A stretch of DNA of 64,000 bases, taken from contig CAZDHB010000002.1 of NCBI GenBank assembly GCA_964505255.1, positions 5,092 through 69,091 of the forward strand. Direction: 5' to 3'. A program made the translations under genes and the position numbers. This document shows, piece by piece, positions 2,085-26,493 of this stretch (its first letter is position 1; each line of letters starts with the position of its first letter). Origin of the DNA: an uncultured Porphyrobacter sp. (GTDB taxonomy: Bacteria; Pseudomonadota; Alphaproteobacteria; Sphingomonadales; Sphingomonadaceae). The notes beneath the pieces are model-generated. The model searched no databases. It was not told where the DNA came from and worked only from the letters and a program-made list of their open reading frames with translations.

Positions 2085-3502
2085 ACGCGAGTATTGCCTC
2101 ACAAGCCCCCAAGGCGGTTGGCCCTGGCGAGAACCAGCGTTTGCCATTCGGACTGAAGCTGGGCTGGGCCAGCGGCGCCTTTGGCATAGCGATCCTGATG
2201 AACGGTATCTCCGGTGTTATTCTCGGGTTTGCCGGAACCGTGCTCGGCATTGATCTCTGGCTCGCTGGCGCTGTCATTTTCGCGAGCAAATTGTTCGATG
2301 TTGTCACCGATCCGGTTGTGGGAATATGGAGCGACAGGCACCGCTCGCCGCGCGGCAGGCGCAGACCGTTCCTGACCTGGGGGGCAATCGTTAGCGCAGT
2401 AAGTTTTGCGCTGATTTTCACGACACCGTCGTTTGACAACCAGTATCTGACCGCGTTCTATCTTTTCCTAGCCCTTTGCATCTATGCATTTGGCTACACG
2501 CTGTTCAACATCCCTTACATGTCCATGCCAGCTGAAATGACAGACAGCTATCATGAGCGTTCCTCGATCCATGCGTACCGCATTGTCTTTGTCGCCCTGG
2601 GAGGGTTAGTTGCCGTTTCGGGCATCAAGGGCGCGGTCGGCTTTCTTGGAGAAAACGACATTGGAAGCTGGCGGATTGTCGGTCTGGCGTGCGCAGCCAT
2701 TATTTTTGTCAGTCTGCTGTGCGCTTATTTGAGCACTTCGAAAGCGCGCTTCACCGATCCGGGGGAGCAGGTAGAGGAGAACAAGTTTGAGCAATTGCGC
2801 CGGGAGTTTCGCGCTGTATTGGGCAATCGGAACTTCGTGCGGTTGATCGCGGTCAAATTTTCCCAGCTCATGGGCGTGCAAACGATTGGCGCTGCGATGC
2901 TCTATTTCTTCCTGCAATATCTGCAAAGCGACTTTGGCACTCTTGCAATCTTTGGTGTGGTGGTCACAGCATCGACAATCATCTTCGCGCCGGTGCTGGT
3001 CAAGTTTTCGAAAATCTACGGCAAGAAGGCTGCCTATTATGTCGCGGCTTTAGCCAATATTGCCTACGCAATTAGCTGGTCGTTTGCCGATCAGGGCGAG
3101 CCAGATTGGGCACTCTTTCTGCGCGCTGCTATTGTTGGCATCGCCTTTGGCGGCAATGTGATCATGGCGATGAGCATGCTGACCGATATAATCAACGAGG
3201 ATGCGGATCGCACGGGAGTGCGCCGCGAAGGGGCTTTCACGGCTCTCTATAGTTTTGTTGAGAAGCTGACCGGTGCGGTTGCGCCGCTGATCGTGGGGAT
3301 CGCTTTATCCGTTGTCGGTTTCGACAAGAATCTGCCTTTTGGTGCGGATCAGGGCGAGAACGTGAACACAGCGCTTTTGCTTGCTGTCTCGTGGCTACCC
3401 GCCATCTTCAATCTCATAGCCATCTGGCTGCTTGCCGGATACAAACTTACCGAGGCTGACGTGAACCAGTCTCGATCCAGTTCAGCGACAGGAAACGTAT
3501 AA
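2081..3502 (+). CDS. MFS transporter, GPH/MelB-like cation symporter family
   Basis: About 12 hydrophobic segments. DVVTDPVVGIWSDR..GRRRPF and NIPYMSMPAEMT motifs typical of GPH symporters. ATGA overlap with the upstream gene. Confidence 0.88.
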   Translation: MNASIASQAPKAVGPGENQRLPFGLKLGWASGAFGIAILMNGISGVILGFAGTVLGIDLWLAGAVIFASKLFDVVTDPVVGIWSDRHRSPRGRRRPFLTWGAIVSAVSFALIFTTPSFDNQYLTAFYLFLALCIYAFGYTLFNIPYMSMPAEMTDSYHERSSIHAYRIVFVALGGLVAVSGIKGAVGFLGENDIGSWRIVGLACAAIIFVSLLCAYLSTSKARFTDPGEQVEENKFEQLRREFRAVLGNRNFVRLIAVKFSQLMGVQTIGAAMLYFFLQYLQSDFGTLAIFGVVVTASTIIFAPVLVKFSKIYGKKAAYYVAALANIAYAISWSFADQGEPDWALFLRAAIVGIAFGGNVIMAMSMLTDIINEDADRTGVRREGAFTALYSFVEKLTGAVAPLIVGIALSVVGFDKNLPFGADQGENVNTALLLAVSWLPAIFNLIAIWLLAGYKLTEADVNQSRSSSATGNV

Positions 3503-4548
3503 TGGAACAGCATATAAACGATCCCCAATTGCGCCAGCGTGGCCGTGCCTCGGTTGAGTTCCTGGTCCAATTGCTCAAGGCCTCTGGTCCGGTCTTCGGA
3601 CAGGTTGGCGCGGAGATTGGCGCGAAGCTGCCCGACCCTGATGCTTTGCCTGATGATCTTGATGCGCGCGATGAGGCGATGAACGCATTGCTCGAAGACA
3701 GCGATGCCTTTGCAACGCAGCGCCTTATTGGCGATTGGCATGGCCGCATGCATGGGCGGGTTTCGGCCGAAGCCTATAATGAAATTGCAGGTGATCTGGC
3801 GCCTGTTCTCGAAGCAACCTCAAAAGGCCCTGCCACGATCGAGTATGATCCCGATATAAAACTGCCGGACTACTATGATGGCGTAAACTTCCACAGGACC
3901 ACAAGCGGGTGGACCGACAATCCCAATCAGGGGTTCATCCATGGCGAGCTGATCCACCGCAAGATGCTTGGTCGGACCTTTCCTGGCGGCATTTTCAAGC
4001 AACGTGAGACCGTGGCGGCGATGGCACCGCGTGATCATTACGACCGGATTTTGGATATGGGCTGCTCGTCTGGTCATTTTACCTATGCTTTGCAGACGGT
4101 TTACCCCGACGCGAAAATAACCGGCATCGACTATGCAGCACCGATGATGGAGCACGCCTGGCGCACCGCTAATGCCAATGGCTGGGACTGGAAACTGATC
4201 CAGCGCGGAGCAGAAGCGACAGGGTTTGACGAGGCAAGCTTCGATCTGGTGGCAAGTTACATCATCCTTCATGAAATGCCTGAGAGTGCAATCCGGGAGG
4301 TTTTTGCCGAAGCTTTTCGTGTCCTCGCGCCGGGCGGCGATATGCTGATGTCTGACGTCACACGTTATGCTGATCTCGATAAGCTATCCGTCTGGAAAGC
4401 GGACCGCGGTGCCAAATATGGCGGCGAACCCCATTGGCGCGAGTCAGCCCTGCTCGATTTCGCCGCGATCGCGCGTGATGTTGGCTTTGAAGATGTAAAG
4501 GCGGAAGGAGCCTATCCGCATGTAGTGCAGGGAAGGAAGCCTGCGTGA
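3502..4548 (+). CDS. Class I SAM-dependent methyltransferase (paralog A)
   Basis: Motif I ILDMGCSSG, acidic motif II (GID), SFDLVASYIILHEMP and RVLAPGG. TAATG coupling to the MFS gene. Confidence 0.85.
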   Translation: MEQHINDPQLRQRGRASVEFLVQLLKASGPVFGQVGAEIGAKLPDPDALPDDLDARDEAMNALLEDSDAFATQRLIGDWHGRMHGRVSAEAYNEIAGDLAPVLEATSKGPATIEYDPDIKLPDYYDGVNFHRTTSGWTDNPNQGFIHGELIHRKMLGRTFPGGIFKQRETVAAMAPRDHYDRILDMGCSSGHFTYALQTVYPDAKITGIDYAAPMMEHAWRTANANGWDWKLIQRGAEATGFDEASFDLVASYIILHEMPESAIREVFAEAFRVLAPGGDMLMSDVTRYADLDKLSVWKADRGAKYGGEPHWRESALLDFAAIARDVGFEDVKAEGAYPHVVQGRKPA

Positions 4549-4835
4549 GCGATCCGAAGGACTTCAATCTGCCCGAAGGGGCGCTCTTAGGCCAAGCACA
4601 GATTGACAATGTCGGACGAGCGCTGATCACTTTGATGCGCGAAGTCGCCGTGCTCAATGACCGGGTGCAGGTTCTAGAATGTCTGCTCGATAAGGAAGGG
4701 GTCATTGCGGCCGAAGCCGTCGACACCTTCCAAGGCGACGAGGCATTCCAGCAGCGCTCGGAACAGTCAATGGCCGCGATTGTGGGCAATGTGATGGCGG
4801 CGCTGCACGGTGCGGATGGCAACACAAGCCAATAG
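4545..4835 (+). CDS. Small helical hypothetical protein, methyltransferase-associated (paralog A)
   Basis: GTGA overlap with the methyltransferase stop. 15/34 identical to the 14338-14700 protein over the IDN...DRVxVLE..L...G segment. Confidence 0.75.
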   Translation: MSDPKDFNLPEGALLGQAQIDNVGRALITLMREVAVLNDRVQVLECLLDKEGVIAAEAVDTFQGDEAFQQRSEQSMAAIVGNVMAALHGADGNTSQ

Positions 4836-4924
4836 TCAAAGCGCCAAAGGACGCCGCGCAGGTACCTCGCTTTTGCTTCCGCCCCAGCAAGGGAGCGGCC
4901 AAGGCGACGAGGCTGAGCGATAGA

Positions 4925-5869
4925 ATGCGCAAACCAGCAATCTCCTCAACACTTATTGGTGCGGCCTTGGCGCTGTCTTCCTGCATCGCCGTTCCAAGCC
5001 CGGATACGGCTGCTCTTTCATGCGCAGCGAGGATGGCGGGGGCGCAAGCCTCGTTTGATCTGCACTTGAAGGCAAAGGATGGCAGGGACATTCCGGTCAC
5101 CGTTTTCCATCCAGATGAGCCGGGCACCTATCCAGTGATTGCTTTCTCGCACGGGGCATTTGCCGCTCCGAAGCGATACACAGCAATGCTGCGCCCGATG
5201 GCTGCAGCCGGTTTTATCATTGTTGCGCCCATGCATAGGGACAGCGAGGAAGCCGGGCTCGCAAGTCCGCCATCGCAAGAGGAAGTGTGGCTGACCCGCC
5301 ATGCAGATTTTGCAATCGCCCTGTCCAAACCTGATGCCATGGCCTCTGCCCTGGCGAGCCGGGCCATTGTGGCAGATGATGCCCCTCCCATCGCCATGGG
5401 CCACAGCTATGGCGCGATAATCGCTCAATTGAGTGCAGGCGCCCAAAGCCTGATGCCTGCAGGCCGCAGCGTTGATGCACCCTTGGATTTGCAAGCAGTG
5501 ATTGCATGGTCACCCCCAGGCGAGGCGAAAGGGATGATCGAGAATGCCGGATGGAGCACTATGGCAACGCCCAGCATGGTCCTGACGGGAACCACAGATA
5601 TTCTCCCCGGCTTTGTCGATGATTGGGAAGACCGAAAGGCCAGCTTCATCCATGCGCCGGCGGGGAACAAGGCTCTGTGGGTAGGAAACCGGATTGATCA
5701 CTATTTCGGCGGCATGTTTGGCAGGGTCAAACCTGCTGATGCAAATTCACAAGGTCTCATGCAGCGGGCGTTGGAACGATCGGTCCAGTTTCTCGACGAA
5801 AACACGGGCAGATATCCTGCTTGCAGCCTTGAGCCATCCTTTAATGGCGAGCAATTTGTCCAGGGCTGA
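4925..5869 (+). CDS. Alpha/beta hydrolase (chlorophyllase/PAF-AH-like fold), predicted lipoprotein
   Basis: FSHG oxyanion motif, GHSYG nucleophile elbow, candidate Asp (TTDILP) and His (IDHYFGG). Lipobox LSSC. Confidence 0.8.
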   Translation: MRKPAISSTLIGAALALSSCIAVPSPDTAALSCAARMAGAQASFDLHLKAKDGRDIPVTVFHPDEPGTYPVIAFSHGAFAAPKRYTAMLRPMAAAGFIIVAPMHRDSEEAGLASPPSQEEVWLTRHADFAIALSKPDAMASALASRAIVADDAPPIAMGHSYGAIIAQLSAGAQSLMPAGRSVDAPLDLQAVIAWSPPGEAKGMIENAGWSTMATPSMVLTGTTDILPGFVDDWEDRKASFIHAPAGNKALWVGNRIDHYFGGMFGRVKPADANSQGLMQRALERSVQFLDENTGRYPACSLEPSFNGEQFVQG

Positions 5870-6063
5870 AAAGTAAAGAGTCGCCTTTTCTCTGCTAGAA
5901 TAAATGGATGAGAATCACCGAAGAGCGGGGATTTTACATAAATCGGGCGGGTCTTGGGGCTACTTTACCCGCCAATCGGATAAAAATGGCATTTGTTTGC
6001 GCTGTAACATGCCTGCTCTTTGATGAATGGAGTACCGACATCAAGGGTAGGGAGTCATTTAAC

Positions 6064-8514
6064 ATGCCGCGTTCTAACCAATCTCGCTTTGCGATCAAAA
6101 CCATGACAACTTCAGGAATGGGTTTGGCGCTTATGGCGCTGTGTGCAAACCCTGCCTTCGCTCAGGAAAGCGAAAGCCCCGCGCCGGAGGCCGAAACGGA
6201 AGATAACGGCAACGTCATCATCGTGACCGCGCGTTCTCGTGAGGAGAGCATTCAGGAAATTCCTTTGGCGATCACGGCGTTCGATGAAGACGCGTTTGCA
6301 AAGCGCGCCATTCAAAATTTGGATGATGTGGCGCGTTTGACGCCAGGTTTGAGCTTTGAAGACTTTACTGGCGGCTTTGCAACACCGGTCATTCGCGGCC
6401 AGTCGCAAACGCGTCTCACCGCTTTGGAACAAAACGTTTCAACATTTCTCGATGGGGTCTATATCCCTCGCTCTTGGGCCATTGATCTTGGCACGCTGAA
6501 CCTTGAGCGGATCGAGGTTGTGAAAGGTCCGCAAAGCGCCCGATATGGTCGGAACGCATTTGCTGGCGCGATCAACTATGTACCTTTCAAGGCAACCATC
6601 GAAAACCAAGATTTTAGCGGCAGCCTCAGTGCGACTGTCGGTAGTGACGAGCGGATTGACGGGGGTGGACGCATCAACTTCTCTCCGAACGACTATTTCG
6701 CTCTCGCGCTTTCCTACAACCGTTCAAGCTTTGACGGCACTTGGGAGAACACTCACCCATTTGCAGACATCGAATTGGAGGAAGGCACTGCAGACAACGC
6801 AGGCGGCTGGGATAACGAAGCGCTCTCTGCATCTTTCTTGATCGAGCCGTCTGACGTGCTCAGCATTGAAGCGAGCTACAATCGCTTTGAAGTCAACAAT
6901 GAAGCCCGTGCCGGCCAAAACAACGATGAATCGGCCGGCGCTTTGAATTGCGGTTCGCAAATTTCAGGAAATTTCCGTTTGTTCTGCGGCGAGCTGCCCG
7001 AAGCGACCGACACTGCCATCGTCGATCCGCGCAATGTGGGTGTTATCGCTGAAACCGATATTTTCCGCGGGGCTGTAAACCTTTCACCTAGCGATAATCT
7101 CGACATCTCCTACGTATTTGGCAAAGTGAAAGGTGAAGTGTTTGCCGGTGGCAGCAGCGAAACCAATCAAGATGTGTGTTTTCCGAACTTCTTCTCTAAT
7201 TTGAATTCGCTGTTTGGCGCTCCTAACGGACCATCAGGGCAATGCGCATTCACGGTTACTCCGGTCGGCGACATCGACTATACTTCGCATGAAGTGCGTG
7301 CAGTGTTTGAGGCAGGTACGTCCTTGCGTTTTGAAGTTGGTGGGTTCCTCTCTGAGGGCAGAGACTTCTTTGAAACTGCATTTGCTTCACCAGGGCCGTT
7401 TTCGGACGATCCAGCCACTCAGATAACCTTGCGTGAGGCTACGGACATCACAGATGGCGAAATCATCGAAACCGATGTCGTCTCAGTCTTTGGCGCGGTT
7501 GAATGGAGCAGCCCAGATGGCAATCTGCGTGTCGGCGCCGAGGGCCGTTACACAGAGAACGAGATCACCGGGTCAACTTTGGCCGGTGGTGCTGCTTCTG
7601 AACTCAACGAGACATTCAAGGTTTTCACGCCTCGTTTCTCGGTCGACTATCAGGCTAACGATGCCATGCTTCTTTATGCATCTGTTGCGCGCGGTTCCAA
7701 AGCCGGCGGCTTTAACCCGGGTGCAATTCAAGATCCGGCACGGCCCGAGCTTGCAGACAACCTGACCTTTGATGAAGAGCTGAACTGGACTTATGAGGTT
7801 GGCGTAAAAGGCCGGTTCCTCAATGATCGCCTGACGCTTAACGCAGCTGGTTTTTACACAGATTGGAGCGCGTTGCAGCTTAACGCACCCGATCCAGGTG
7901 CTGACGCCCTCATCGCCACCAATATCACGCTGAACCTAGGTGATGCGCGGGTCTATGGTCTTGAGCTTGACGGTGCATACCAAATCACCGACAACTTCAC
8001 GATCGATGGTTCGTTCTCGATCTTCGACAACCGTTACAAAGACGGCACGATTGATAACCGCTTTGCAAGGCCAGCCTCGGGCTTCTTTGCAGCCACGATC
8101 GGCGGTGCTTTTGGCACCCCTACTCCGCCCCCTTGCGATGACGTTCTGTGCGCAAGCAATGGCGACGTTGGCGGAAACCGGATCGAAAGAACACCTCCGA
8201 TCCAGGCGACCCTCGGCGCAGAGTATAATGGCTTTAGCGGCGATGTAGAATGGTTCGTTCGCGGCGATCTGAGCTGGCAGGACGAATTCTACGCGACGCC
8301 GGTCAATCTTGCCACGATCCCAAGCCGTTTCCTCGTCAGCGCAAGCGCCGGCGTGACATACGAAAACTTCGATATCAGCTTTTGGATGCGAAACCTTACC
8401 GATGAACGGTATGTCTCCAACTCCTTCGCTGTTATCATTCCATTCGGAAACGCGTACAACACCTTCTATGGTGATCGCCGCTCTTTCGGTGCGACCGCAA
8501 AAGTGAGCTTCTAG
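6064..8514 (+). CDS. TonB-dependent outer-membrane receptor
   Basis: Signal peptide ending PAFAQ, TonB-box-like VIIVTAR, plug motif RIEVVKGPQSARYGRNAFAGAINY, C-terminal Phe (AKVSF). ATG 6064 with GGGAG upstream is preferred over the track start at 5908. Confidence 0.95.
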   Translation: MPRSNQSRFAIKTMTTSGMGLALMALCANPAFAQESESPAPEAETEDNGNVIIVTARSREESIQEIPLAITAFDEDAFAKRAIQNLDDVARLTPGLSFEDFTGGFATPVIRGQSQTRLTALEQNVSTFLDGVYIPRSWAIDLGTLNLERIEVVKGPQSARYGRNAFAGAINYVPFKATIENQDFSGSLSATVGSDERIDGGGRINFSPNDYFALALSYNRSSFDGTWENTHPFADIELEEGTADNAGGWDNEALSASFLIEPSDVLSIEASYNRFEVNNEARAGQNNDESAGALNCGSQISGNFRLFCGELPEATDTAIVDPRNVGVIAETDIFRGAVNLSPSDNLDISYVFGKVKGEVFAGGSSETNQDVCFPNFFSNLNSLFGAPNGPSGQCAFTVTPVGDIDYTSHEVRAVFEAGTSLRFEVGGFLSEGRDFFETAFASPGPFSDDPATQITLREATDITDGEIIETDVVSVFGAVEWSSPDGNLRVGAEGRYTENEITGSTLAGGAASELNETFKVFTPRFSVDYQANDAMLLYASVARGSKAGGFNPGAIQDPARPELADNLTFDEELNWTYEVGVKGRFLNDRLTLNAAGFYTDWSALQLNAPDPGADALIATNITLNLGDARVYGLELDGAYQITDNFTIDGSFSIFDNRYKDGTIDNRFARPASGFFAATIGGAFGTPTPPPCDDVLCASNGDVGGNRIERTPPIQATLGAEYNGFSGDVEWFVRGDLSWQDEFYATPVNLATIPSRFLVSASAGVTYENFDISFWMRNLTDERYVSNSFAVIIPFGNAYNTFYGDRRSFGATAKVSF

Positions 8515-8538
8515 AAGTTCAAGAAGAAAAAAATCAGC

Positions 8539-8570
8539 AAGGGCTGCCAATGCGAATTGGCGGCCCTTTT
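8539..8570 (+). terminator. Intrinsic terminator after the TonB-dependent receptor
   Basis: AAGGGCTGCCAA-tgcgaa-TTGGCGGCCCTT hairpin followed by TT, with an A-run upstream. Confidence 0.75.
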
Positions 8571-8610
8571 GATATCAATTCACCTTGAAAGCTGAGTTCG
8601 GTCCCAAAAC

Positions 8611-9870
8611 ATGACCACTATTAGAGACATTATTCTTGCGCCAGCCAATGGAGCCTTCTTCTACGACGACCAAGCCGCGATCCGCTCCGGCTTGAAGCAG
8701 GATGGCTTCGACTACATCGGAAAACCCGTAACAGATGGCTTTGAGCGCATTCGTCAGCCATCAAGAGCGCTCAGCATTGGTCTGGTTCTTGACAATGGCT
8801 CCGTCGCCTGGGGCGATATGGTCAGCGTCCAATATTCAGGCGCTGCGGGGCGTGATCCATTGTTCGATCCCGAGAAAATTGCGGTGCTGGCCGACGATAT
8901 CCTGCGACCAGAGCTAATAGGGCGGCAGGCGGACGAGGTTCAAACAAATTGTGATGAGGTGCTGGACAAAGAGCGCCCATCGCCGCTCCCTTTGGCGGTG
9001 AAATATGGGCTAAGCCAAGCTTTGATAGCTGCGGCGGCTAACACCAAGCAATGCACCCCGGCCGAAATTGTCTGCGATGCATTTGGTCGCCCCTACCCTA
9101 CCGTGCCGATCCCCATCTTTGCTCAAAGCGGTGATGAGCGATATCTCAACGTTGACAAGATGGTGCTCAAGAAGGTCGATATCTTGCCGCACGGCCTGAT
9201 CAATTCAGCCGAAAAGTTCGGTCCCGAGGGCAGGACCTTTTCCGACTATGTGGAATGGGTCGCCAATCGCGCGACGCAGCTCGGTGGAGAAACTTACCGT
9301 CCCAAGCTGCATTTCGATCTCTATGGCTGGATTGGATTGGGAATCAGCGATGATCCAGAAAAAGTCGCCAGCTTTATCGCGCAATGCGCAGAAAAAGTTC
9401 CTTTGTTTGACCTGCTGATTGAGAGCCCAGTCGATTACGGCGAACGCTCGCTTCAGATCGAAAAATACGCCCAAATCGTAAGCGCGATGGAGCGGATTGG
9501 CACAAGCGCCAAAATCGTGGCGGACGAGCATTGCAATACACTTGGCGACATTCGCGATTTTTGTGACGCGAAAGCGGCGCATGTGATCCAAGTAAAAACG
9601 CCTGATGTTGGCAGCCTGCTCGATACGGCGAGCGCCATTCAATATGCCAAACAATCGGGCGTTGGAGCCTATTGCGGAGGGACGAGTGCAGAAACCGACG
9701 TATCAGCGCGCGCTTGCGTCCATGTCGCGCTTGCTATGCAGGCCAATATGATGCTCGCCAAACCGGGTATGGGCGTTGACGAAGCGATCTGTATTGTCGG
9801 CAATGAGCAAAGTCGCGCGCTGGCGCAGATCCGCTACAACACATCGGCGCAAGCGCGAAACAATGGCTGA
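8611..9870 (+). CDS. mal: Methylaspartate ammonia-lyase (enolase superfamily)
   Basis: MAL signatures WGD..VQYSGAAGRDPLF, FAQSGD, PHGLIN, HFDLYG, IESP, ADEHCN, QVKTPD and LAKPGMGVDE. Confidence 0.9.
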   Translation: MTTIRDIILAPANGAFFYDDQAAIRSGLKQDGFDYIGKPVTDGFERIRQPSRALSIGLVLDNGSVAWGDMVSVQYSGAAGRDPLFDPEKIAVLADDILRPELIGRQADEVQTNCDEVLDKERPSPLPLAVKYGLSQALIAAAANTKQCTPAEIVCDAFGRPYPTVPIPIFAQSGDERYLNVDKMVLKKVDILPHGLINSAEKFGPEGRTFSDYVEWVANRATQLGGETYRPKLHFDLYGWIGLGISDDPEKVASFIAQCAEKVPLFDLLIESPVDYGERSLQIEKYAQIVSAMERIGTSAKIVADEHCNTLGDIRDFCDAKAAHVIQVKTPDVGSLLDTASAIQYAKQSGVGAYCGGTSAETDVSARACVHVALAMQANMMLAKPGMGVDEAICIVGNEQSRALAQIRYNTSAQARNNG

Positions 9871-10987
9871 CCTTGACGGCATTACGGTCGTATCGATCGA
9901 ACAAGCGGTCGCAGCGCCCTATGCATCGATGCGGCTTGCAGCTGATGGCGCAAGGGTCATTAAGATTGAGCGGCCCGAGGGGGATTTCGCTCGGCGGTAT
10001 GACACTTTGGCTTCTGGCCAGAGCGCTTATTTTGTGTGGCTGAATGCAGGCAAGGAATCGATTTGCCTCGATTTGAAATTGGAGGAAGACAAATCCCTTC
10101 TGCTCCAAATCGTGAGCGAGGCCGATGTCGTCATACAAAATCTCAAACCGGGGACGATGGCCAAGCTCGGATTAGCAATCGATGATCTGCGCGCTCAGTT
10201 TCCCTCGCTCATAACCTGCTCGATTTCAGGTTTTGGCGAGGAAGGCCCCTTCGCCGATCTCAAGGCTTATGATCTGATTGTGCAAGCCGAAGCAGGCCTA
10301 TGCTCGATCACGGGCACCCAAGATGGTCCAGCGCGTGTGGGGGTGTCGGTGTGCGATATAGCCGCCGGAATGAGCGCCCATTCGGCAATTCTACAGGCGC
10401 TCTTCCACCGCGAACGAACCGGCGAAGGCAGCGCGCTTGAGGTATCGCTGTTCGATGCTTTGGCAGATTGGATGAACGTCCCTTACCTGCAGCATCGCTA
10501 TGGCGGATTTGAGACAAAGCGCAGCGGAGTGAACCATCCCTCACTCGCACCCTACGGGGCCTATCCAACGCGCGATGGCCGCAAGATCATCTTTTCAGTC
10601 CAAAACGAGCGCGAATGGGTCTGGTTTTGCGAGCATGTGATGGGCTCAAGCGATCTGGCCACGAACGAGCGTTTTGCCAACAACATGCTGCGGCTTGCCA
10701 ACCGCGAGATCTTGGATGACCTGATCAATGCAAGGTTCGCCCAGCTTGAAATGGATGAAGCTCTGGAACTGCTCAAGATATCCGGCTTGGCATGCGGCAG
10801 GCTGAACGGTGTTGCAGAATTGGCCAACCATCCGCATCTGCGAACACGCTCTGTGCTCTTCGATGGCGAGACTTTTGAAGTGATTGCTCCGGGTGTGCAA
10901 AAGAGCGGAGCTTTGCCAACGCAGCTTTCGGTACCCGTAAAAGATCAAGACGGTGCCAGCATCCGATTGCAGACCGCCAAGGGTTAG
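9863..10987 (+). CDS. Family III (CaiB/BaiF) CoA-transferase, possibly a mesaconate CoA-transferase
   Basis: EQAVAAPYAS..LA..GARVIKIERP.GD, NAGKES and YDLIVQAEAG motifs with the catalytic Asp region (VCDIAAG). ATG 9863 overlaps the mal stop. Confidence 0.88.
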   Translation: MADLDGITVVSIEQAVAAPYASMRLAADGARVIKIERPEGDFARRYDTLASGQSAYFVWLNAGKESICLDLKLEEDKSLLLQIVSEADVVIQNLKPGTMAKLGLAIDDLRAQFPSLITCSISGFGEEGPFADLKAYDLIVQAEAGLCSITGTQDGPARVGVSVCDIAAGMSAHSAILQALFHRERTGEGSALEVSLFDALADWMNVPYLQHRYGGFETKRSGVNHPSLAPYGAYPTRDGRKIIFSVQNEREWVWFCEHVMGSSDLATNERFANNMLRLANREILDDLINARFAQLEMDEALELLKISGLACGRLNGVAELANHPHLRTRSVLFDGETFEVIAPGVQKSGALPTQLSVPVKDQDGASIRLQTAKG

Positions 10988-11071
10988 CCAGCAAGCAACA
11001 TCAAACAAATAGAAGCTTGCAGGGCGGGCTTCCGCATTATAGCCAGCGTTTGGGTAAAAGGGGATCAAACT

Positions 11072-11857
11072 ATGGAAAGAGGTGTCCCGGTACGCGCGAT
11101 TAGCCGAGGCTTCGCGGTCCTCTCGGCAGTGAGCCGTGATGGGCCGATTACTCTCATGGACATATCCCGCAGCGCAGATGTCCCCTACGCGACCGCTTGT
11201 CGGGTGGTCCAAACCTTGATGCACGAAGGCTTGATTGAGCGCGAAGTCGGCCGCAAAAAATATCGTGTGACAGCATTGGTCCAATCGCTGGCAACAGGCT
11301 TCCAGCAGGAGGATCTCCTCGCCGCAAAAGCACGGCCCCTCATGGAAGATCTGTGTCAGGAGGTCGGCTGGCCGATCTCCCTTGCAACGCGTGTGGGAAC
11401 GCGCATGATGGTGCGCGAATCCACTCACAAGATGACATCGCTCACTTTTACAAATTACTATCCCGGTTTCACCTTACCCATCGCAGAGTGCGCAACGGGC
11501 AAAGCCTATCTAGCCTATTGCGATGAAGACGAACGCGAGCGCATCCGCGACGCATTCGAGGCGACTGAAAGTGAGGCAGCTCGGACAGGGCTGGTGCTTT
11601 TGTCCGATGAAGGCGCCTTGCAGAATATCCGCACCGCCGGTTTTGCTTTGCAAGCGCGCAATCTCTACAATTTCGAGCCAGGCAAGACTTCCTCGATCGC
11701 GGTGCCGCTAACCGACACTGCGGGCGGCTTGGTGGGAACAATGGCGCTGATCTACTTCGCCTCCGCCATTAAGCCGCACGAGGCAGCCAATCAGTTCCTC
11801 GGCAAAATGCAGCACACGGCCACGCAAATCAGCTCCAGACTGGACGCTGCACAGTAA
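11072..11857 (+). CDS. IclR-family transcriptional regulator
   Basis: N-terminal HTH (VRAISRGFAVL...ATACRVVQTL..EGLI) and IclR effector domain (ATGKAYLA, SIAVPL). Confidence 0.9.
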   Translation: MERGVPVRAISRGFAVLSAVSRDGPITLMDISRSADVPYATACRVVQTLMHEGLIEREVGRKKYRVTALVQSLATGFQQEDLLAAKARPLMEDLCQEVGWPISLATRVGTRMMVRESTHKMTSLTFTNYYPGFTLPIAECATGKAYLAYCDEDERERIRDAFEATESEAARTGLVLLSDEGALQNIRTAGFALQARNLYNFEPGKTSSIAVPLTDTAGGLVGTMALIYFASAIKPHEAANQFLGKMQHTATQISSRLDAAQ

Positions 11858-11859
11858 CC

Positions 11860-13272
11860 TCAAGCCTTCGAGGCCGATTGCGCAGCAGCATGCTGGCCGG
11901 CCAAACGTCCCAAAGTGGTGGCGGTCATCAAACCATTGCCAGCCAAATAGCCATCCGCCGCAGGGCCGGAAATGCCGCGCGCTGCTCCGCCGCCAGCATA
12001 AAGGTTAGGGAACGGTTGGCGCTCGGCATCGAGGACGCGGGCATCGCCGTCCACTTCAAGGCCGCCTTGCGTATGGAACAAGGCGCCGGTGACTTTCACT
12101 GCGTAGAAAGGCGCTGCTAGCTTCGCTTTGCCCGCGAAGGAACGACCGAATGCATCGCTTTTTTCGTTGTCCACCAGATGCCAAGTCTCTTCGACTGTTT
12201 GCGCAAGACCTGCTGCATCCACACCCAATTGCTCGGCCAGTGAACCAAGGTCATCCGCCTTTGTTAGGCATCCTGCCGAGATCGCCTGTTGATAGTCATC
12301 AAACTGTTCCATCACCTTATGACGGGTTTCGTCATAAATGCTCCAGGCAACATGGCCGTCCTGTTTGAGCACCTCGACGGCTTGCTCGGAGTAACCTGAG
12401 GCTTCATTTGCAAAGCGCCTGCCTTGCCGGTTCACCTGTATCCCGCCCTCGACAATCAGGGGCCACAAAATCGGGATACCGTAACCCGCAGCCAAGCCCG
12501 CATGGCCTTGGTAGGAGGAAAGGTCCTCCATCGCTGCATCCAATTCGCGGCCCCAGGCAATAGCATGCCCCTTATTGCCTGGATGGCCGTGGAAAGTGGC
12601 ATGCTCCAGCTCGGGGATTAGCTCGTTGACCATTTGCTGATTACCCGCAAAGCCGCAGCAGGCGAGGATCAGCGCACCGCAACCGATAATATCCTCCTCG
12701 CCATCAGGACGCGTACAGCCGATAGCGAACACGCGATTGTCTGCGTTAACAAACAACCGGTTTGCTGTGCTCTCTGTCAAGAAGTCGACCCCGGCGGTTT
12801 CGCAAGCTGAATAAAGCGCTCCCATTAGCTCACCGCCCGACCGGCTGGGCATGCCATGCATCCGGCGGACCGAGTGACCGGGATAGGTGAACCCATCGAC
12901 GAGGCTGAGATCAAGATTATGCTGATGCGCTAGCCAGTCGATTGTCGCTGCCGATTGGGACACGATATGCTCGACAAGGCCCTGATCAACCGCGCCTTTG
13001 GTTTTGGCGATGATATCGCCGGCGAAGATTTGGACGCTATCAGCCACGCCTGCGGCTTGCTGAATCTTGCTGCCGCAAGCGGGAATAAGGCCAGTGGACA
13101 TCGATGTGGTACCAAGCGGCTGGCGATCCCGCTCCACCACCAACACATCCACACCCGCATCACGCACGGCCAGCGCTGCGCATAAGCCCGTGCCGCCGCC
13201 GCCCACTATTATCACGGGCAAGTCCATGATTGTCTCGGCGCTCTGCGCGCGGACAACTTCAATTGCGCTCAT
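11860..13272 (-). CDS. FAD-dependent oxidoreductase, fumarate reductase/3-ketosteroid dehydrogenase flavoprotein family
   Basis: IIVGGGGTG dinucleotide motif, ILACCGF, LFHTQGGL and PNLYAGG. The C-terminal active-site loop reads GYLAGNG. Confidence 0.8.
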   Translation of the reverse strand: MSAIEVVRAQSAETIMDLPVIIVGGGGTGLCAALAVRDAGVDVLVVERDRQPLGTTSMSTGLIPACGSKIQQAAGVADSVQIFAGDIIAKTKGAVDQGLVEHIVSQSAATIDWLAHQHNLDLSLVDGFTYPGHSVRRMHGMPSRSGGELMGALYSACETAGVDFLTESTANRLFVNADNRVFAIGCTRPDGEEDIIGCGALILACCGFAGNQQMVNELIPELEHATFHGHPGNKGHAIAWGRELDAAMEDLSSYQGHAGLAAGYGIPILWPLIVEGGIQVNRQGRRFANEASGYSEQAVEVLKQDGHVAWSIYDETRHKVMEQFDDYQQAISAGCLTKADDLGSLAEQLGVDAAGLAQTVEETWHLVDNEKSDAFGRSFAGKAKLAAPFYAVKVTGALFHTQGGLEVDGDARVLDAERQPFPNLYAGGGAARGISGPAADGYLAGNGLMTATTLGRLAGQHAAAQSASKA

Positions 13273-13319
13273 AGCTTGTCAGGCTCCAATTGTTAGAACA
13301 AACTCGATCAGTTGCTGCA

Positions 13320-14195
13320 TCAAGGCGCCCCGTGCCGCTTCTGAAATTCCGTTACATCGTCCATGCCCAACAGGCGCGACATTTCCGAGAAGTCGAACAG
13401 GTCTAAATGGGCGCTGTTGGGATCGTCTGCAGCGAGCCCTCGATAGAAATTGCGGGCCGCATGAGCCGCACTGAGCGGCGCGCCAGCCGGGTAAATCACG
13501 AGTTTCACGCCCAGCTCCTGATATCGGGTTGGCGAGAGAATTGGCGTCACACCGCCATGCGCAGCGTTGAGCAGAAGCGGCTTTTGAAGCGCATCGGCTG
13601 CCTGTGCGATCTCTTCTTCGGATTGCGGCCCTTCCAAGAAGAGAATGTCCGCACCTGCATGATCATACTCTTGCAGCCGGCTGATTGCCGCCTCTAGCCC
13701 CTCAGTGCGCCTCGCATCGGTGCGCGCGATAATGCGCATATCGCCCTCTGCGCGCGCTTCTACGGCCACTTCAACGCGCTTGACCATTTCTTGCGCCGAA
13801 ACTGAGCTGGCTTTGCCGACATGGCCGCATATTTTAGGAAAGCCCTGATCCTCTAGCTGGATCGCGGCAATACCGGCTCGTTGATAGGCTTTCACTGCCC
13901 GGTCGAGGTTTGTTAGGCTGCCGAAGCCCGTGTCTGCATCGGCAATAATCGGCGCAGCTGCTTTCTCTGCAAACCGGCTGAATATGGCGAGAAAATCGCT
14001 CGCGCCTGCAATCCCTACATCGGGCTCCCCCAATGAAGAGGCCGCGTTCCAATAGCCTGATGCATAAAAGGCTTTGAAGCCTGCTTCCCTCGCCATCAAG
14101 AGGCTCATGTGATCGTAAATGCCGGGCGCTACGATGATGCCAGACTGCGTCAGCATGTGCCCAAGGGTTTGCGCCGGGGTCTGGTGAGTTTTCAT
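13320..14195 (-). CDS. Isocitrate lyase/PEP mutase superfamily C-C lyase (PrpB/dimethylmalate lyase-like)
   Basis: DADTGFG, IQLEDQ.FPKICGH (KxCGH catalytic loop), IIARTDA and FLEG motifs. Confidence 0.88.
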   Translation of the reverse strand: MKTHQTPAQTLGHMLTQSGIIVAPGIYDHMSLLMAREAGFKAFYASGYWNAASSLGEPDVGIAGASDFLAIFSRFAEKAAAPIIADADTGFGSLTNLDRAVKAYQRAGIAAIQLEDQGFPKICGHVGKASSVSAQEMVKRVEVAVEARAEGDMRIIARTDARRTEGLEAAISRLQEYDHAGADILFLEGPQSEEEIAQAADALQKPLLLNAAHGGVTPILSPTRYQELGVKLVIYPAGAPLSAAHAARNFYRGLAADDPNSAHLDLFDFSEMSRLLGMDDVTEFQKRHGAP

Positions 14196-14337
14196 GGGGG
14201 CTCACTGCCGTATCACGCAGCAATTGGGACACACCGTTCCCCCATTATCCATTGAGCGGATGAATATGCAATCGCGCGTCGATTGATGCGAGGCGCTGGT
14301 GCAGATATATGCTATATTGCAAATGAAGGCGAAATTT

Positions 14338-14700
14338 ATGGAGCAATTGGTGACCGACGAGGCGATCCCGACTGATCTGGGCGATGAGATTGGCGGGCGC
14401 GGGCGCGTCTATTTCGACAATGTCGTGATCGACAATATGATGGATGCGTTGTTGGAACTTTCCGCTGCCGTATGGACCAATCACGACCGTGTGTTGGTGC
14501 TGGAAAAGATCCTTGAAGCCAAAGGAATATCGGTCTCCAAAGAGATAGAGGCGCATCTGCCAGATGCAGAAGAAATCGCGGCACGCGCGGCGGAACGCGA
14601 CGCCTTCGTTGATCAAGTTTTCGGCGCCTTTCTGCGCCGCCCCACTCACAACATTGGACAGGCCGCTGCAGATATCGCTGCCGGGCCCAATCAGGAGTAA
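14338..14700 (+). CDS. Small helical hypothetical protein, methyltransferase-associated (paralog B)
   Basis: ATG 14338 with GAAGG upstream. Paralogous to 4545-4835. Ends 5 nt before the second methyltransferase. Confidence 0.75.
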   Translation: MEQLVTDEAIPTDLGDEIGGRGRVYFDNVVIDNMMDALLELSAAVWTNHDRVLVLEKILEAKGISVSKEIEAHLPDAEEIAARAAERDAFVDQVFGAFLRRPTHNIGQAAADIAAGPNQE

Positions 14701-14705
14701 GATAT

Positions 14706-15800
14706 ATGGACCGCGGTTCTATTGGCATCCTCCCTCGCCCGACCAAGCTCGCCGACGAAAGCTACCTTGAGTTCGTCACCTCCTTTCGAAAATTTGCGAT
14801 CCAGCGCGGTTTCCCCGTGATGGCCGCCAATGGCGAGGCTGAACTGGAACGCGCCATTGAAACAGGCGAAGTTGTGCGCCCCGATGATGGCAGCGACATT
14901 CCGCTGGATGAAGTCAAGAAAGTGTTCGGCAAAGTGCCCTTCACACCGACATGGCAGCGTTTTGTACGTTCCCAGCAGGAGATGATGTGGCGCGGCACGC
15001 GCAAAAGCTTTTTGCGCCAGGGCGAAGATTTGCTGAAGGCGATGGAAGAGGCGGAACAGTCCAATCCTGGCAACATCCATTACGAACCCGGCTTCGAACC
15101 ACCCAAATACACGCGCTGTGAAATTCACTGCCAGCCGGGCGGATACACTGATGACCCATTGGGCGGTGCCGTTTTCCATTACGGTACCAAGATCTTTTAC
15201 GAGGGCTTCAACGATCAGGACGAATTGCACATCGAGCTTGCTGAAAAAGCGACCAAGCCGGAAGATGGCAAGGTCGCCAACGTGCTCGATATCGGCTGCT
15301 CGATCGGGCAAGCGACAACGGTACTCAAGGATCTCTACCCAGAGGCTGAGGTGTGGGGTCTCGATGTGGGTCTGCCGCTGATCAAATATGCCCATATGCG
15401 CGCGACCGAGCGCGGCAAGGATGTGCATTTCAAGCAGGCACTAGCAGAGGACAGCGGCTTTACCGATGGCCAGTTCGATATGGTCCTCTCGTACATCCTC
15501 TTCCACGAAGTGCCGGTGAAGAAGATGAAGGAGATCATCGCCGAGACTTTCCGCGTGCTCCGCCCCGGCGGTATCTTCTCGATTTACGAGTTCCCCAACA
15601 ATAATGACGCAGTGAAAGTGAGCGACAGCCACCGCTTCATGATCGACAATGACAGCCGCGACAATTGCGAACCCTATTCGCCCGCTTTTGTCGCCTCGGA
15701 CTTTAAAGGCATTTTGGAAGAGGCGGGGTTTGTGGTCGAACCGGGCCCCGGTCTCACCAATACATTCTTGCAATCATTGGTCGCGCGCAAACCCGCCTAA
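14706..15800 (+). CDS. Class I SAM-dependent methyltransferase (paralog B)
   Basis: VLDIGCSIG, GLD, QFDMVLSYILFHEVP and RVLRPGG. Clearly homologous to 3502-4548. Confidence 0.85.
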   Translation: MDRGSIGILPRPTKLADESYLEFVTSFRKFAIQRGFPVMAANGEAELERAIETGEVVRPDDGSDIPLDEVKKVFGKVPFTPTWQRFVRSQQEMMWRGTRKSFLRQGEDLLKAMEEAEQSNPGNIHYEPGFEPPKYTRCEIHCQPGGYTDDPLGGAVFHYGTKIFYEGFNDQDELHIELAEKATKPEDGKVANVLDIGCSIGQATTVLKDLYPEAEVWGLDVGLPLIKYAHMRATERGKDVHFKQALAEDSGFTDGQFDMVLSYILFHEVPVKKMKEIIAETFRVLRPGGIFSIYEFPNNNDAVKVSDSHRFMIDNDSRDNCEPYSPAFVASDFKGILEEAGFVVEPGPGLTNTFLQSLVARKPA

Positions 15801-15803
15801 AGG

Positions 15804-16964
15804 TCAAACGCCCAGCAGAGGGGTGGTTGAGGGATCATAGGCGAAGATGCCAAGCGCGTCCTCGTCCTTGATCGGCGTATCGCGGAACATGTCAGGATCA
15901 ATCGCTTGCAAGCGATCGCCGCCCAAATTGCTTTCGCGCTGGAGCATCGAGGCGCGCTCGATCCGCGTGGCGACATAGCAATCGAGTGCCTTGTCCAGAT
16001 CATCACATTGCGCAAACGCGCGGCCGATTATGACCCCATCCTCAATCGCGCAGCCTGCCCCTTGCCCCATATAAGGCAGCATGGGATGCGCGGCATCGCC
16101 CAACAGCACGGTGCGCCCCTTGCGCCATTCGCTGAGCGGTTCGCGGATGAAAAGGCCCCAACAAAACAGCTCCTCTTCCGGGATCTGAGCCAACAGCTCT
16201 TGCACATAAGGCGGAAAGCCCTCGTATTTTGCAAGCAGCTGGGCCTTGTCCGCCTTGACCGCCCAGCCTTCCTCGACCCAGTCATCGGCCTTGGATAAGG
16301 CCACGACATTGATCAATTCGCCCTTGCGAACGGGATAGCTCACAATGTTCTTGCCGAAAGCAAGGTGATTGATGTTGAGCGCCTCACTCGCCCGCGATGT
16401 CACTGTGCCGGCCGGAATAAGTCCGCGATAAGCAAGATGTCCGCTGAACTGCGGCTCGCCAGTTTCAAACAGCGCGCCGCGCACAACCGAACGCAGCCCA
16501 TCAGCGGCAATCGCGATATCCACCTCGGCAACCTCGCCATTGGCAAAGCTGAGCGTAACGCCGTCATCGCGCGATGTGATGCCGGCAAGATCACAATCCA
16601 TCCGGCAATTCTCTACGCCAAAAGCCGCGATGAGCGCAGCGAGCAAATCCGCGCGGTGGAACTGCAGATAAGGCGCCTTGTAACGCTCTCGCGTGTTGCG
16701 CCGCTCAATCGCCTGCAGCAATTCCCCCGTTACGCCGTGGCAAAGATGCTGTTCAAGCGGTTCATTCGCTTCAGATTCGAGAAATTCGCCGAGCCCCAGC
16801 GAGCGCAGCCCCAGCACGGCATTGGGCGACATCGAAATTCCTGCGCCCACCTCGCCAAATTCGGGCGCTCGCTCGTAGAGCGTCACGTCCTGTCCCGCTT
16901 TGCGCAAGGCAATTCCAGCAACCAGGCCGCCAATGCCGCCGCCAATAATCGCAATCTTAGTCAT
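15804..16964 (-). CDS. Group A flavin monooxygenase (salicylate hydroxylase/6-hydroxynicotinate 3-monooxygenase-like)
   Basis: IIGGGIGG, DG motif (AADGLRS) and GD motif (LLGDAAHPMLPYMGQG). Confidence 0.88.
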   Translation of the reverse strand: MTKIAIIGGGIGGLVAGIALRKAGQDVTLYERAPEFGEVGAGISMSPNAVLGLRSLGLGEFLESEANEPLEQHLCHGVTGELLQAIERRNTRERYKAPYLQFHRADLLAALIAAFGVENCRMDCDLAGITSRDDGVTLSFANGEVAEVDIAIAADGLRSVVRGALFETGEPQFSGHLAYRGLIPAGTVTSRASEALNINHLAFGKNIVSYPVRKGELINVVALSKADDWVEEGWAVKADKAQLLAKYEGFPPYVQELLAQIPEEELFCWGLFIREPLSEWRKGRTVLLGDAAHPMLPYMGQGAGCAIEDGVIIGRAFAQCDDLDKALDCYVATRIERASMLQRESNLGGDRLQAIDPDMFRDTPIKDEDALGIFAYDPSTTPLLGV

Positions 16965-18565: not shown

Positions 18566-18678
18566 TTTCTACTCGGCTTGGACAAGCCTAAACGAGTCAC
18601 GCGGGTAAGCCTATCCGATAGATGGTCACAAGGGGCAGTTCGCATGCAGCAATTGCGCGCAAGAGCCTAACAGAGGGT

Positions 18679-20034: not shown

Positions 20035-20036
20035 CC

Positions 20037-21515: not shown

Positions 21516-21519
21516 TCCC

Positions 21520-22332: not shown

Positions 22333-22347
22333 CCAAGGAGAACACTG

Positions 22348-22866
22348 ATGACATCTGAACCTGTCCACCCTCCCTTTGGCCATATTACCAAGGGGCGATC
22401 CGTCGTCGTGGGTCCGGACGAGGGGCGCAGCCTATGGCAACCCATGCCCAGCCGCGGCTATGTCAATGTGAACCTGACGGCAGACAACATGCCTTACGAC
22501 ACATGGTCTTCAGGCACACAGGTGATGCCCCCGGGCTGTATGGTGCGCGAGCACGGACACAAGCAGAACCATGAGTTGGTGTTTGTCTATGAGGGCACGG
22601 GCGAGTGCGATATTGACGGCGAGCTCCACCAATTGGAGCCGGGCACCACTGTCCTTTTCGCGCGCAATTGCACCCATTGGATCAAGAACACGGGCGATAC
22701 GGACATGAAGATGTTCTGGGTCTTCTTTCCGCCAGGTCTTGAAGACTGGTTCTATGCCATCGGCAAAGACCGCACACCGGGCGAGCCGATGCCCGAGCCG
22801 TTCGACCGCCCTGACAATGTGAAGGAGGTGCAAGACAAAATGCGCTTCCTTCCTCCCCGCAGCTAA
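22348..22866 (+). CDS. Cupin-domain metalloprotein
   Basis: Cupin motif 1 (HGH..NHELVFVYEG) and motif 2 (GTTVLFARNCTHWIKN). SD AAGGAG. Confidence 0.85.
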   Translation: MTSEPVHPPFGHITKGRSVVVGPDEGRSLWQPMPSRGYVNVNLTADNMPYDTWSSGTQVMPPGCMVREHGHKQNHELVFVYEGTGECDIDGELHQLEPGTTVLFARNCTHWIKNTGDTDMKMFWVFFPPGLEDWFYAIGKDRTPGEPMPEPFDRPDNVKEVQDKMRFLPPRS

Positions 22867-22881
22867 AGACCACCAACGCCC

Positions 22882-26316: not shown

Positions 26317-26493
26317 ATTTGGTTCCTTGATTGAGGCCAGACAAATAGGCGTGTCCGCAAGACCCCATAAGTCAGCCGCCCGGTTCTAACCACGGTTTGG
26401 ATAATCAAACATCAGGTTACCGCACAGTGGTGACGCAGGCCAAATGGCCATGGGTTTCCCGACAAGGATCATATTGGTGCGCTGATAACCCCA

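Follow-up and report, generated by a model that had tools for sequence, protein, structure and literature searches.

The presence of methylaspartate ammonia-lyase (MAL) is usually read as a sign that an organism ferments glutamate by the B12-dependent route or runs the haloarchaeal methylaspartate cycle, and NCBI annotation attaches the Gene Ontology (GO) term 'anaerobic glutamate catabolic process' to such mal genes. In this study, we examined a mal gene and the CoA-transferase gene that overlaps it in a stretch of 64,000 nt (the window, meaning the whole stretch analyzed) from contig CAZDHB010000002.1 of an uncultured Porphyrobacter sp. The best explanation as a whole, to which we give a probability of about 0.5, is that the window carries a MAL of a separate lineage (clade B) without a mutase in cis, that the catabolism of an imported compound leads to mesaconate, and that the transferase activates a C5 dicarboxylate. 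Neither protein stands out within its known family; the novelty lies in the setting, a lineage of MALs that occurs without a mutase inside uncharacterized catabolic clusters of aerobic Alphaproteobacteria.

Several described systems come close to this arrangement. The glmS-glmL-glmE-mal-fumD pathway of Clostridium tetanomorphum and Enterobacteriaceae employs the same lyase family, with the same active site and the same product, mesaconate; yet the window has no mutase, mesaconase or citramalate lyase nearby, its host appears to be an aerobic phototroph, and its MAL falls in a separate clade (42-46% identical). In the E. coli-type cluster mal is followed by DUF1446/AtuA and FumD, whereas in the window it is followed by the CoA-transferase. 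The haloarchaeal methylaspartate cycle (Mal, Mct, Mch, Mcl; PMC5592240) likewise passes, in function, from MAL to a family III CoA-transferase, and a conversion of mesaconate to mesaconyl-CoA would be possible in the window as well; however, the window transferase scores below the Mct model, none of mamAB, mch and mcl is present in the window, and the setting is a catabolic island rather than acetate assimilation. Bacterial mesaconate and itaconate utilization, as set out in PMC4682846, relies on class I fumarase, succinyl-CoA:(S)-citramalate or itaconate CoA-transferase and (S)-citramalyl-CoA lyase, mesaconate being hydrated to (S)-citramalate (mesaconase), activated to citramalyl-CoA and cleaved to acetyl-CoA and pyruvate. 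The window transferase is of the same subfamily, and a rhizobial module treated below holds all three enzyme types beside MAL, but the window is devoid of fumarase and CoA-ester lyase and its conserved neighbors are instead an ICL-type lyase and a fumarate-reductase-like (FRD-like) flavoprotein. Finally, the glmS-glmL-glmE-mal-CaiB clusters of an Ensifer adhaerens plasmid and of a Mesorhizobium contig (L091) also hold an overlapping or adjacent mal-transferase pair; there, however, the mutase is present and the MAL is of clade A, whereas the window pair is of clade B without mutase. The distribution of MAL is considered in PMC4682846 for organisms with both enzymes, MAL and glutamate mutase. 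Literature queries combining MAL with Mesorhizobium, microcystin or Sphingomonadales genera, the last of them poorly framed, returned no paper on a mutase-free MAL in aerobic Alphaproteobacteria.

The ammonia-lyase and its overlapping CoA-transferase

The elements at the core of the locus are the following.

8539-8568, plus strand: hairpin between the TonB-receptor gene and mal, with 13-nt arms (92% complementary) and a 4-nt loop, then TTTTG
8611-9870, plus strand: MAL of the 'orphan' clade B, 419 amino acids (aa), assigned by Pfam and NCBIfam match and active-site alignment
9863-10987, plus strand: family III (CaiB/BaiF) CoA-transferase, 374 aa, matching PF02515 with 338 bits over profile positions 1-334 of 366

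Read from its sequence, the MAL gene is intact and is predicted to encode an L-threo-3-methylaspartate ammonia-lyase with a complete active site. The protein scores 549 bits on the equivalog TIGR01502 (cut-off 286), displays the full-length MAAL_N plus MAAL_C architecture (PF05034, 166 bits; PF07476, 317.6 bits) of this member of the enolase superfamily (EC 4.3.1.2), and is 44-45% identical to the crystallized enzymes 1KKO and 1KCZ. In an alignment with glm-linked MALs, the catalytic Lys331 and His194, the Mg ligands Asp238, Glu273 and Asp307, and Gln329 are all kept in the window MAL and in 16 clade-B sequences; also kept are the amine pocket (Gln73/Gln172), the methyl pocket (Phe170/Tyr356/Leu384) and the carboxylate contact Thr360, with residue roles as in the published MAL structures and mutagenesis. 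Cys361 is conservatively replaced by Ser, and clade B has either residue at this position. Pseudogenization of the lyase, which the preliminary description of this DNA had named as a way in which its reading could fail, is thus not indicated by the open reading frame (ORF) or by its catalytic residues. Since the methyl pocket is conserved, the substrate is probably 3-methylaspartate itself, and the conserved Gln73, by which the size of the amine is restricted, makes a bulky N-substituted substrate unlikely. The same sequence as that of the window is present in seawater metagenomes, and the nearest MAL relatives belong to Erythrobacter, Porphyrobacter and Altererythrobacter.

The longest ORF of the transferase (9776-10987) begins at a TTG, but its Pfam match starts only from residue 33, the gene is called with a 374-aa product on identical metagenome contigs, and an in-frame ATG at 9863 lies inside ATGGCTGA, whose TGA is the MAL stop; we therefore place the start at ATG 9863. 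The overlap of mal with the CaiB/BaiF gene, as first described, stands, although its length becomes 8 nt, and the 95 nt implied by the listed ORF with its TTG 9776 start is rejected. Such an overlap is typical of translational coupling, and the transferase is probably coupled to MAL in this way; in Erythrobacter sp. W53 the two genes overlap by 4 nt (ATGA). The best PDB relatives of the transferase are 4ED9, formyl-CoA transferase (10UH), YfdE and SUGCT. Its Asp165, in 'GVSVCDI', aligns with the active-site Asp of 4ED9, YfdE and SUGCT and is invariant in all MAL-linked transferases; the catalytic Asp of family III enzymes is Asp169 in Frc/YfdE numbering (PMC5592240). Scores are about equal for the succinate-glutarate transferase model (226.7 bits), the CoA:oxalate CoA-transferase model PRK11430 (226.9) and Mct (218.7), and with all three near 220 bits the protein is a family III enzyme of the dicarboxylate type whose specificity is not pinned to one model; with its active-site Asp kept, it looks catalytically competent. 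It is 60-73% identical to other MAL-linked transferases and 46-50% identical to the transferase of the itaconate-type cluster in Mesorhizobium L091.

Partner genes were sought in the 64 kb by Pfam, run on or precomputed for every sizeable ORF, and by tblastn with Ensifer and E. coli GlmS/GlmL/GlmE, CitE-like lyase, HpcH lyase, MaoC-like hydratase, AtuA and class I fumarase (sequences that come from loci of Ensifer, Mesorhizobium and E. coli). Pfam found no glutamate mutase, MaoC-type (FAS1_DH_region) hydratase, HpcH/CitE lyase or class I fumarase (Fumerase) among the ORFs of the window, and tblastn gave only short matches there (E >= 0.077). The absence of glutamate mutase and of a MaoC hydratase from the 64 kb, asserted in the preliminary description, is thereby borne out. 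The sole protein with a B12-binding domain in the window is a 309-aa regulator of the PpaA/AerR type, next to PpsR in the photosynthesis gene cluster.

Two MAL lineages, a conserved island and a candidate operator

A scan with the MAL profile, one genome per species, yielded 80 loci with 10-kb flanks, 19 from Sphingomonadales and 61 from other groups (mostly Mesorhizobium, Bradyrhizobium, Sinorhizobium and Microvirga), which were searched by tblastn for every island protein and for reference proteins of the Glm, lyase and fumarase types. No glmS/L/E was found within these 10 kb in any Sphingomonadales locus (0/19) or in any other (0/61). A CoA-transferase directly follows MAL in 60 of the 80 loci (7/19 Sphingomonadales and 53/61 others, with three more of the 61 having it within 4 kb), so the mal-transferase adjacency is not due to chance. 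Conversely, the three proteobacterial loci with glm that we examined (Ensifer adhaerens plasmid, Mesorhizobium contig, E. coli) all have glmS-glmL-glmE immediately before a mal of clade A. These glm-linked MALs are 67-75% identical to each other and 42-46% identical to the MALs of the window and of the rhizobial orphans, the orphan (clade B) MALs being 52-74% identical among themselves. The CoA-transferases diverge in parallel with the MAL clades to which they are attached: between window and rhizobial genes identity is 52-58% for MAL and 60-66% for the transferase, against 42-50% with clade A. By sequence, then, the window pair groups with clade B, an alphaproteobacterial lineage that is consistently mutase-free in cis over the 80 loci. 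GlmE itself is present in aerobic proteobacteria (Ensifer, some Mesorhizobium, Rhodobacterales and one Sphingomonas); none labeled as Erythrobacteraceae occurs among the best 120 relatives of the Ensifer or the Sphingomonas GlmE, a weak negative given that most entries are nameless.

The rhizobial clade-B loci hold a module made of LysR and MAL-CoA-transferase-CitE-like lyase-SSADH-like aldehyde dehydrogenase-class I fumarase-Lrp/AsnC-class III omega-aminotransferase (L005, L087, L088 and about 55 further, L024-L086). It is found on symbiosis plasmids and islands, flanked by insertion sequence (IS) elements in the plasmid records inspected, with no glm within 10 kb. Judged by its gene content, the module could by itself take an omega-amino, methyl-branched compound to acetyl-CoA and pyruvate. 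The CitE-like CoA-ester lyase is encoded in 42/61 non-Sphingomonadales loci versus 0/19 in Sphingomonadales, and class I fumarase in 41/61 versus 0/19; neither is encoded in the window or in any of the 19 Sphingomonadales loci. The Mesorhizobium sp. contig L091 shows a different arrangement at 1171-17349, glmS-mutL-glmE-mal-CoA-transferase-AtuA/DUF1446-DUF4387-class I fumarase, a gene set that looks sufficient for a complete methylaspartate route starting at glutamate in an aerobic rhizobium. This glm set is directly downstream of itaconate-degradation-like genes (acyl-CoA dehydrogenase, CoA-transferase, MaoC-like hydratase, HpcH lyase, PrpD), and the DUF1446/DUF4387 pair is common to L091 and E. 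coli (L006).

Around mal, the window holds the following features.

759-8514, plus strand: upstream operon of an exported beta-lactamase-fold hydrolase, a GPH/MFS_2 symporter, a methyltransferase paralog with a 96-aa ORF, a lipoprotein esterase and a TonB-dependent receptor
5986-8514, plus strand: TonB-dependent receptor gene, the last of that operon
11072-11857, plus strand: IclR-family regulator downstream of MAL (PF09339 and PF01614)
11860-13272, minus strand: soluble fumarate-reductase-like FAD flavoprotein (PF00890), of the flavocytochrome-c type without heme domain
13320-14195, minus strand: lyase of the ICL/PEP-mutase superfamily (PF13714), related to methylisocitrate lyase and dimethylmalate lyase
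14246-14262: operator-like palindrome TATCCATTGAGCGGATG in the icl / small-ORF divergent promoter region, an exact match to TATCC-N7-GGATR
14338-14700, plus strand: small conserved ORF, 120 aa, without Pfam match, always paired with the methyltransferase
14706-15800, plus strand: class I S-adenosylmethionine (SAM) methyltransferase, 364 aa, with an uncharacterized 180-aa N-terminal part
15804-16964, minus strand: group A flavin monooxygenase, with tropone 2-monooxygenase and 6-hydroxynicotinate 3-monooxygenase as relatives
16961-18565, minus strand: FAD_binding_4 (VAO/GlcD-type) flavoprotein
18622-23880, plus strand: operon of an MFS transporter, an aldehyde dehydrogenase (ALDH), an alpha/beta hydrolase (RutD/PcaD-like), a cupin and an ornithine cyclodeaminase/mu-crystallin-like (OCD) protein
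~31400-64000: photosynthesis cluster genes puhE, acsF, puhCBA, lhaA, bchMLHBNF, ppaA/aerR, ppsR, bchG, a PUCC-type MFS gene, a FAD_binding_3 protein gene, tspO, pufBALM, bchZYXC, crtF/D/C and bchODI

Among the 19 Sphingomonadales loci the methyltransferase recurs in 16, the ICL-like lyase in 15, the FRD-like flavoprotein and IclR in 14 each, the flavin monooxygenase in 13 and the VAO-like flavoprotein in 10; 13 loci also have a zinc alcohol dehydrogenase gene between the frd-like and the icl-like gene. Gene order is shuffled among loci and co-localization is kept: hydrolase, cupin and OCD genes directly follow mal in L009, mal adjoins the small ORF and the methyltransferase in L020, and a second ICL-like paralog diverges from mal in six loci (L014, L019, L021-L023, L033). 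That co-localization outlasts rearrangement argues for one functional unit, a catabolic, IclR-type island of about 27 kb (window ~0.7-27.7 kb). Complete genomes with the island are those of Erythrobacter sp. W53 (CP193502.1), Erythrobacter sp. HA6-11 (CP193501.1) and Altererythrobacter sp. GH1-8 (NZ_CP171690.1). A PrpE-like acyl-CoA ligase (621 aa; nearest to propionate-CoA ligase, with 690 bits where the cut-off is 955) accompanies 11 loci, seven of them without the transferase and four with it.

The icl / small-ORF intergenic region contains a conserved palindrome, TATCC-N7-GGAT(A/G). Allowing at most one mismatch, ATCC-N7-GGAT occurs no more than 220 nt upstream of the small ORF in 16/17 loci and about 100 nt upstream of mal, at a constant position, in 9/20 loci, where chance alone would give ~0.13 sites per locus. 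In the window, sites with 0-1 mismatch are found at 14246-14262 (icl / small ORF), 5966-5982 (just before the TonB-receptor start at 5986) and 26387-26403 (phyH / fmo2), and sites with two mismatches at 731-747 (before the hydrolase gene), 11040-11056 (before iclR) and 18612-18628 (vao / mfs spacer). The two-mismatch pattern is too noisy window-wide (99 matches versus 67 expected), and only sites with at most one mismatch, together with positional conservation, were used. A simple promoter and terminator scan gave no more sites than in shuffled sequence. These genes may form one regulon, probably under the IclR protein (11072-11857), with the palindrome as candidate operator.

Further traits of individual island proteins are worth recording. 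The ICL-like lyase carries the K-I-C-G-H loop and the DADTGFG/EDQ metal ligands. The flavoprotein at 11860-13272 keeps the equivalents of Shewanella Fcc3 His365, Arg402 and His504 and has none of Thr377, Glu378, Arg381 and Arg545 (Fcc3 numbering). With these carboxylate-binding and proton-relay residues absent, it is not a canonical fumarate reductase, and a role as fumarate or mesaconate reductase was rejected; it is probably an enoate reductase or a dehydrogenase for a non-fumarate substrate. The methyltransferase at 14706-15800 is the best-conserved island gene, with 68-87% identity across Erythrobacteraceae. The two SAM methyltransferases of the island are paralogous (~32% identical), one in 3502-4835 with the 96-aa ORF and one in 14338-15800 with the 120-aa ORF, and each has an N-terminal part of ~180 uncharacterized residues. 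A PDB search with the methyltransferase returned generic class I methyltransferases only, and neither its N-terminal half nor the small ORFs had any Pfam match. In the 18622-23880 operon, the cupin has a sub-threshold Ectoine_synth match (25.2 bits, cut-off 27) and the OCD-like protein a sub-threshold EutC match (174 bits, cut-off 472), which serve as leads only.

Homologs of the upstream operon recur, arranged otherwise, in L012, L018 and L020, and the operon is not conserved in Erythrobacter sp. W53. Its first hydrolase (759-2084) has a beta-lactamase fold (S12-type) with an N-terminal hydrophobic segment; the other (4925-5869) is an alpha/beta-fold protein with a lipoprotein signal (…LALSSC) and chlorophyllase/PAF-acetylhydrolase-like matches. 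With two exported hydrolases encoded before a TonB receptor, a large imported substrate may be de-esterified or de-acylated in the periplasm. In L092 (= L011), an uncultured Erythrobacter, the rest of the island is absent, yet a FAD_binding_4/ALO flavoprotein gene still stands divergently beside mal and a cupin gene comes after it (8112-11864); this cupin shows a weak match to DMSP_lyase (25.8 bits, cut-off 27). The MAL-cupin and MAL-flavoprotein links may thus be the tightest in the island. Directly beside the island, the window holds a complete-looking photosynthesis gene cluster (~31400-64000); Erythrobacter sp. W53 has no such cluster in the 10 kb before its island, where sugar-related genes and an IS element are found. 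Judged by this cluster, by the seawater metagenomes and by the nearest MAL relatives, the host of the window is a marine aerobic anoxygenic phototroph of the Erythrobacteraceae.

Source and fate of 3-methylaspartate

In the model that we prefer, 3-methylaspartate would be generated by, or imported for, the ~27-kb island, with its TonB receptor, GPH and MFS importers, exported hydrolases, flavoproteins, ALDH, cupin and OCD-like protein. MAL would convert it to ammonium and mesaconate, and the transferase would activate a C5 dicarboxylate with succinyl-CoA as donor. The intact lyase, the lack of a mutase in the window and near MAL in the 80 loci, the split between the clades, and an island and operator shared with importers and catabolic enzymes all fit a substrate derived from an imported compound. 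This much of the preliminary description, that 3-methylaspartate comes from the breakdown of such a compound and not from a mutase, remains plausible; its other suggestion, an N-substituted analog, is disfavored for bulky substituents by the retention of Gln73. The CoA acceptor could be mesaconate itself or (S)-citramalate made by a promiscuous class I fumarase. Mesaconyl-CoA had been put forward as the transferase product, but citramalate fits at least as well as acceptor, given that the rhizobial orthologs, 60-66% identical, sit beside class I fumarase and CitE-like lyase, and that rhizobial MAL, CoA-transferase, lyase and fumarase together reproduce the mesaconase/citramalyl-CoA route. The haloarchaeal Mct uses mesaconate and methylsuccinate, not citramalate (PMC5592240). 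The CoA ester would then be cleaved by enzymes encoded elsewhere, for example the citramalyl-/methylmalyl-CoA lyase of a partial 3-hydroxypropionate bicycle. The enzymes of that bicycle include mesaconyl-CoA hydratases and a trifunctional lyase. As the sink, the preliminary description had suggested the hydratase of the ethylmalonyl-CoA pathway; what has been reported for aerobic anoxygenic phototrophs of the Erythrobacteraceae, in Erythrobacter NAP1 and Porphyrobacter, is instead a partial set of 3-hydroxypropionate-bicycle enzymes (PMC10674011).

The transferase is missing from 12/19 Sphingomonadales loci and is therefore not essential to the role of MAL in this order; the CoA branch seems to be an inherited, dispensable module in Erythrobacteraceae. 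Since the transferase is often lost, the ICL-type lyase keeps its catalytic Cys loop, and a PrpE-like ligase is present, we hypothesize a second, CoA-independent branch, in which the ICL-type lyase would split a hydrated C5 acid into free propionate or acetate and a 2-oxo acid.

As for the source, the arrangement of ALDH, Lrp/AsnC and omega-aminotransferase in rhizobia parallels DoeC/DoeX/DoeD of diaminobutyrate and ectoine catabolism, and by this analogy transamination and oxidation would turn a 3-methyl-branched omega-amino compound into 3-methylaspartate. Candidates for the rhizobial compound are 2,4-diamino-3-methylbutanoate and the opine-like tetrahydropyrimidine rhizolotine, both reported from Lotus nodules formed by Rhizobium loti. 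The MFS-ALDH-hydrolase-cupin-OCD operon of the window could be an analogous feeder of 3-methylaspartate. A broader proposal, which we offer tentatively and consider possible rather than probable, is a B12-independent aerobic route throughout the lineage: neighboring enzymes would make 3-methylaspartate from a methyl-branched nitrogen compound (omega-aminotransferase and semialdehyde dehydrogenase in rhizobia; the MFS-ALDH-hydrolase-cupin-OCD operon, acting on a possibly ectoine-like marine solute, in Erythrobacteraceae), and its carbon would be split by a new CoA-independent ICL-type lyase. Microcystin or nodularin, as donors of D-methylaspartate, were considered and set aside as mere speculation, there being no gene of MlrA or MlrC type and no paper found that links MAL with microcystin.

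Several points weigh against the preferred model. The pathway as read is incomplete, the 64 kb encoding no mesaconate or mesaconyl-CoA hydratase and no CoA-ester lyase. The transferase does not reach the Mct equivalog NF041294 (cut-off 700) or any other equivalog model, and at the position of the GNxH loop (PMC5592240) it reads G-V-N-H-P, all MAL-linked relatives having G-V/L-x-H-P where YfdE and 4ED9 have G-N-x-H. The frequent loss of the transferase in Sphingomonadales tells in the same direction, as does the operator copy upstream of mal in the window, which is degenerate and embedded in the hairpin at 8539-8568. No metatranscriptome run contained the MAL gene. A glutamate mutase, moreover, may be encoded outside the 64 kb of this metagenome contig.

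That last point leads to an alternative in which a B12-dependent mutase elsewhere in the genome makes 3-methylaspartate from glutamate; MAL and the transferase would then simply complete glutamate catabolism or a route resembling the methylaspartate cycle. Our inspection covered 64 kb of the genome, the organism does use B12, to judge from its PpaA/AerR regulator, and the occurrence of GlmE in Ensifer, some Mesorhizobium, Rhodobacterales and one Sphingomonas demonstrates that aerobic proteobacteria can encode the enzyme. Nonetheless, the glm genes adjoin clade-A MALs (3/3 loci), from which the clade-B MAL of the window is well removed at 42-46% identity, and not one of the 80 clade-B loci has them within 10 kb; mal is co-localized, and shares an operator, with catabolic genes that do not concern glutamate, and the search for an Erythrobacteraceae GlmE, weak as it is, came out negative. 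We thus regard this explanation as quite unlikely. The transferase might otherwise serve not the MAL product but acetate, propionate or another acid from the ICL-like lyase, doing the same job as the PrpE-like ligase. The lyase would indeed release a free acid, YfdE, a close structural relative, uses acetyl-CoA (PMC5592240), and the distribution of transferase and ligase is largely either/or (transferase only in four loci, ligase only in seven); yet four loci hold both, and the transferase is coupled to MAL, not to the lyase. In rhizobia its orthologs (60-66%) stand between MAL and a CoA-ester lyase with no ICL-like lyase there, and the characterized relatives of its subgroup act on C4-C5 dicarboxylates (PMC5592240), all of which makes this reading unlikely.

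A third alternative reverses the direction: the transferase would free mesaconate from mesaconyl-CoA and MAL would aminate it, giving 3-methylaspartate as a building block of a methylated natural product. The MAL reaction is reversible, as established enzymology holds, and the island contains two SAM methyltransferases, monooxygenases, glutathione S-transferases and several oxidoreductases of tailoring type. Against this, the equilibrium of MAL favors deamination at physiological ammonium, and the island encodes no nonribosomal peptide synthetase, polyketide synthase, ATP-grasp or other ligase. Although pathways that form mesaconyl-CoA have been reported in related phototrophs (PMC10674011), the hallmarks of the locus are catabolic (IclR, TonB receptor, two importers, exported hydrolases, ALDH, a C-C lyase and, in relatives, a propionate/acetate-CoA ligase), and the rhizobial sister module is plainly so; an anabolic role is therefore very unlikely.

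Implications for aerobic Alphaproteobacteria

Clade-B MALs span marine phototrophic Erythrobacteraceae and rhizobial symbiosis plasmids, both of them aerobic Alphaproteobacteria. If their 3-methylaspartate does stem from a compound other than glutamate, an undiscovered nutrient would be involved, with a degradation pathway that includes an FRD-like flavoprotein, an ICL-type lyase and a methyltransferase, and the 'glutamate fermentation' deduced from mal annotation would be wrong for clade-B taxa. Isolates with complete genomes, together with the candidate operator, make the question of the source compound directly testable.

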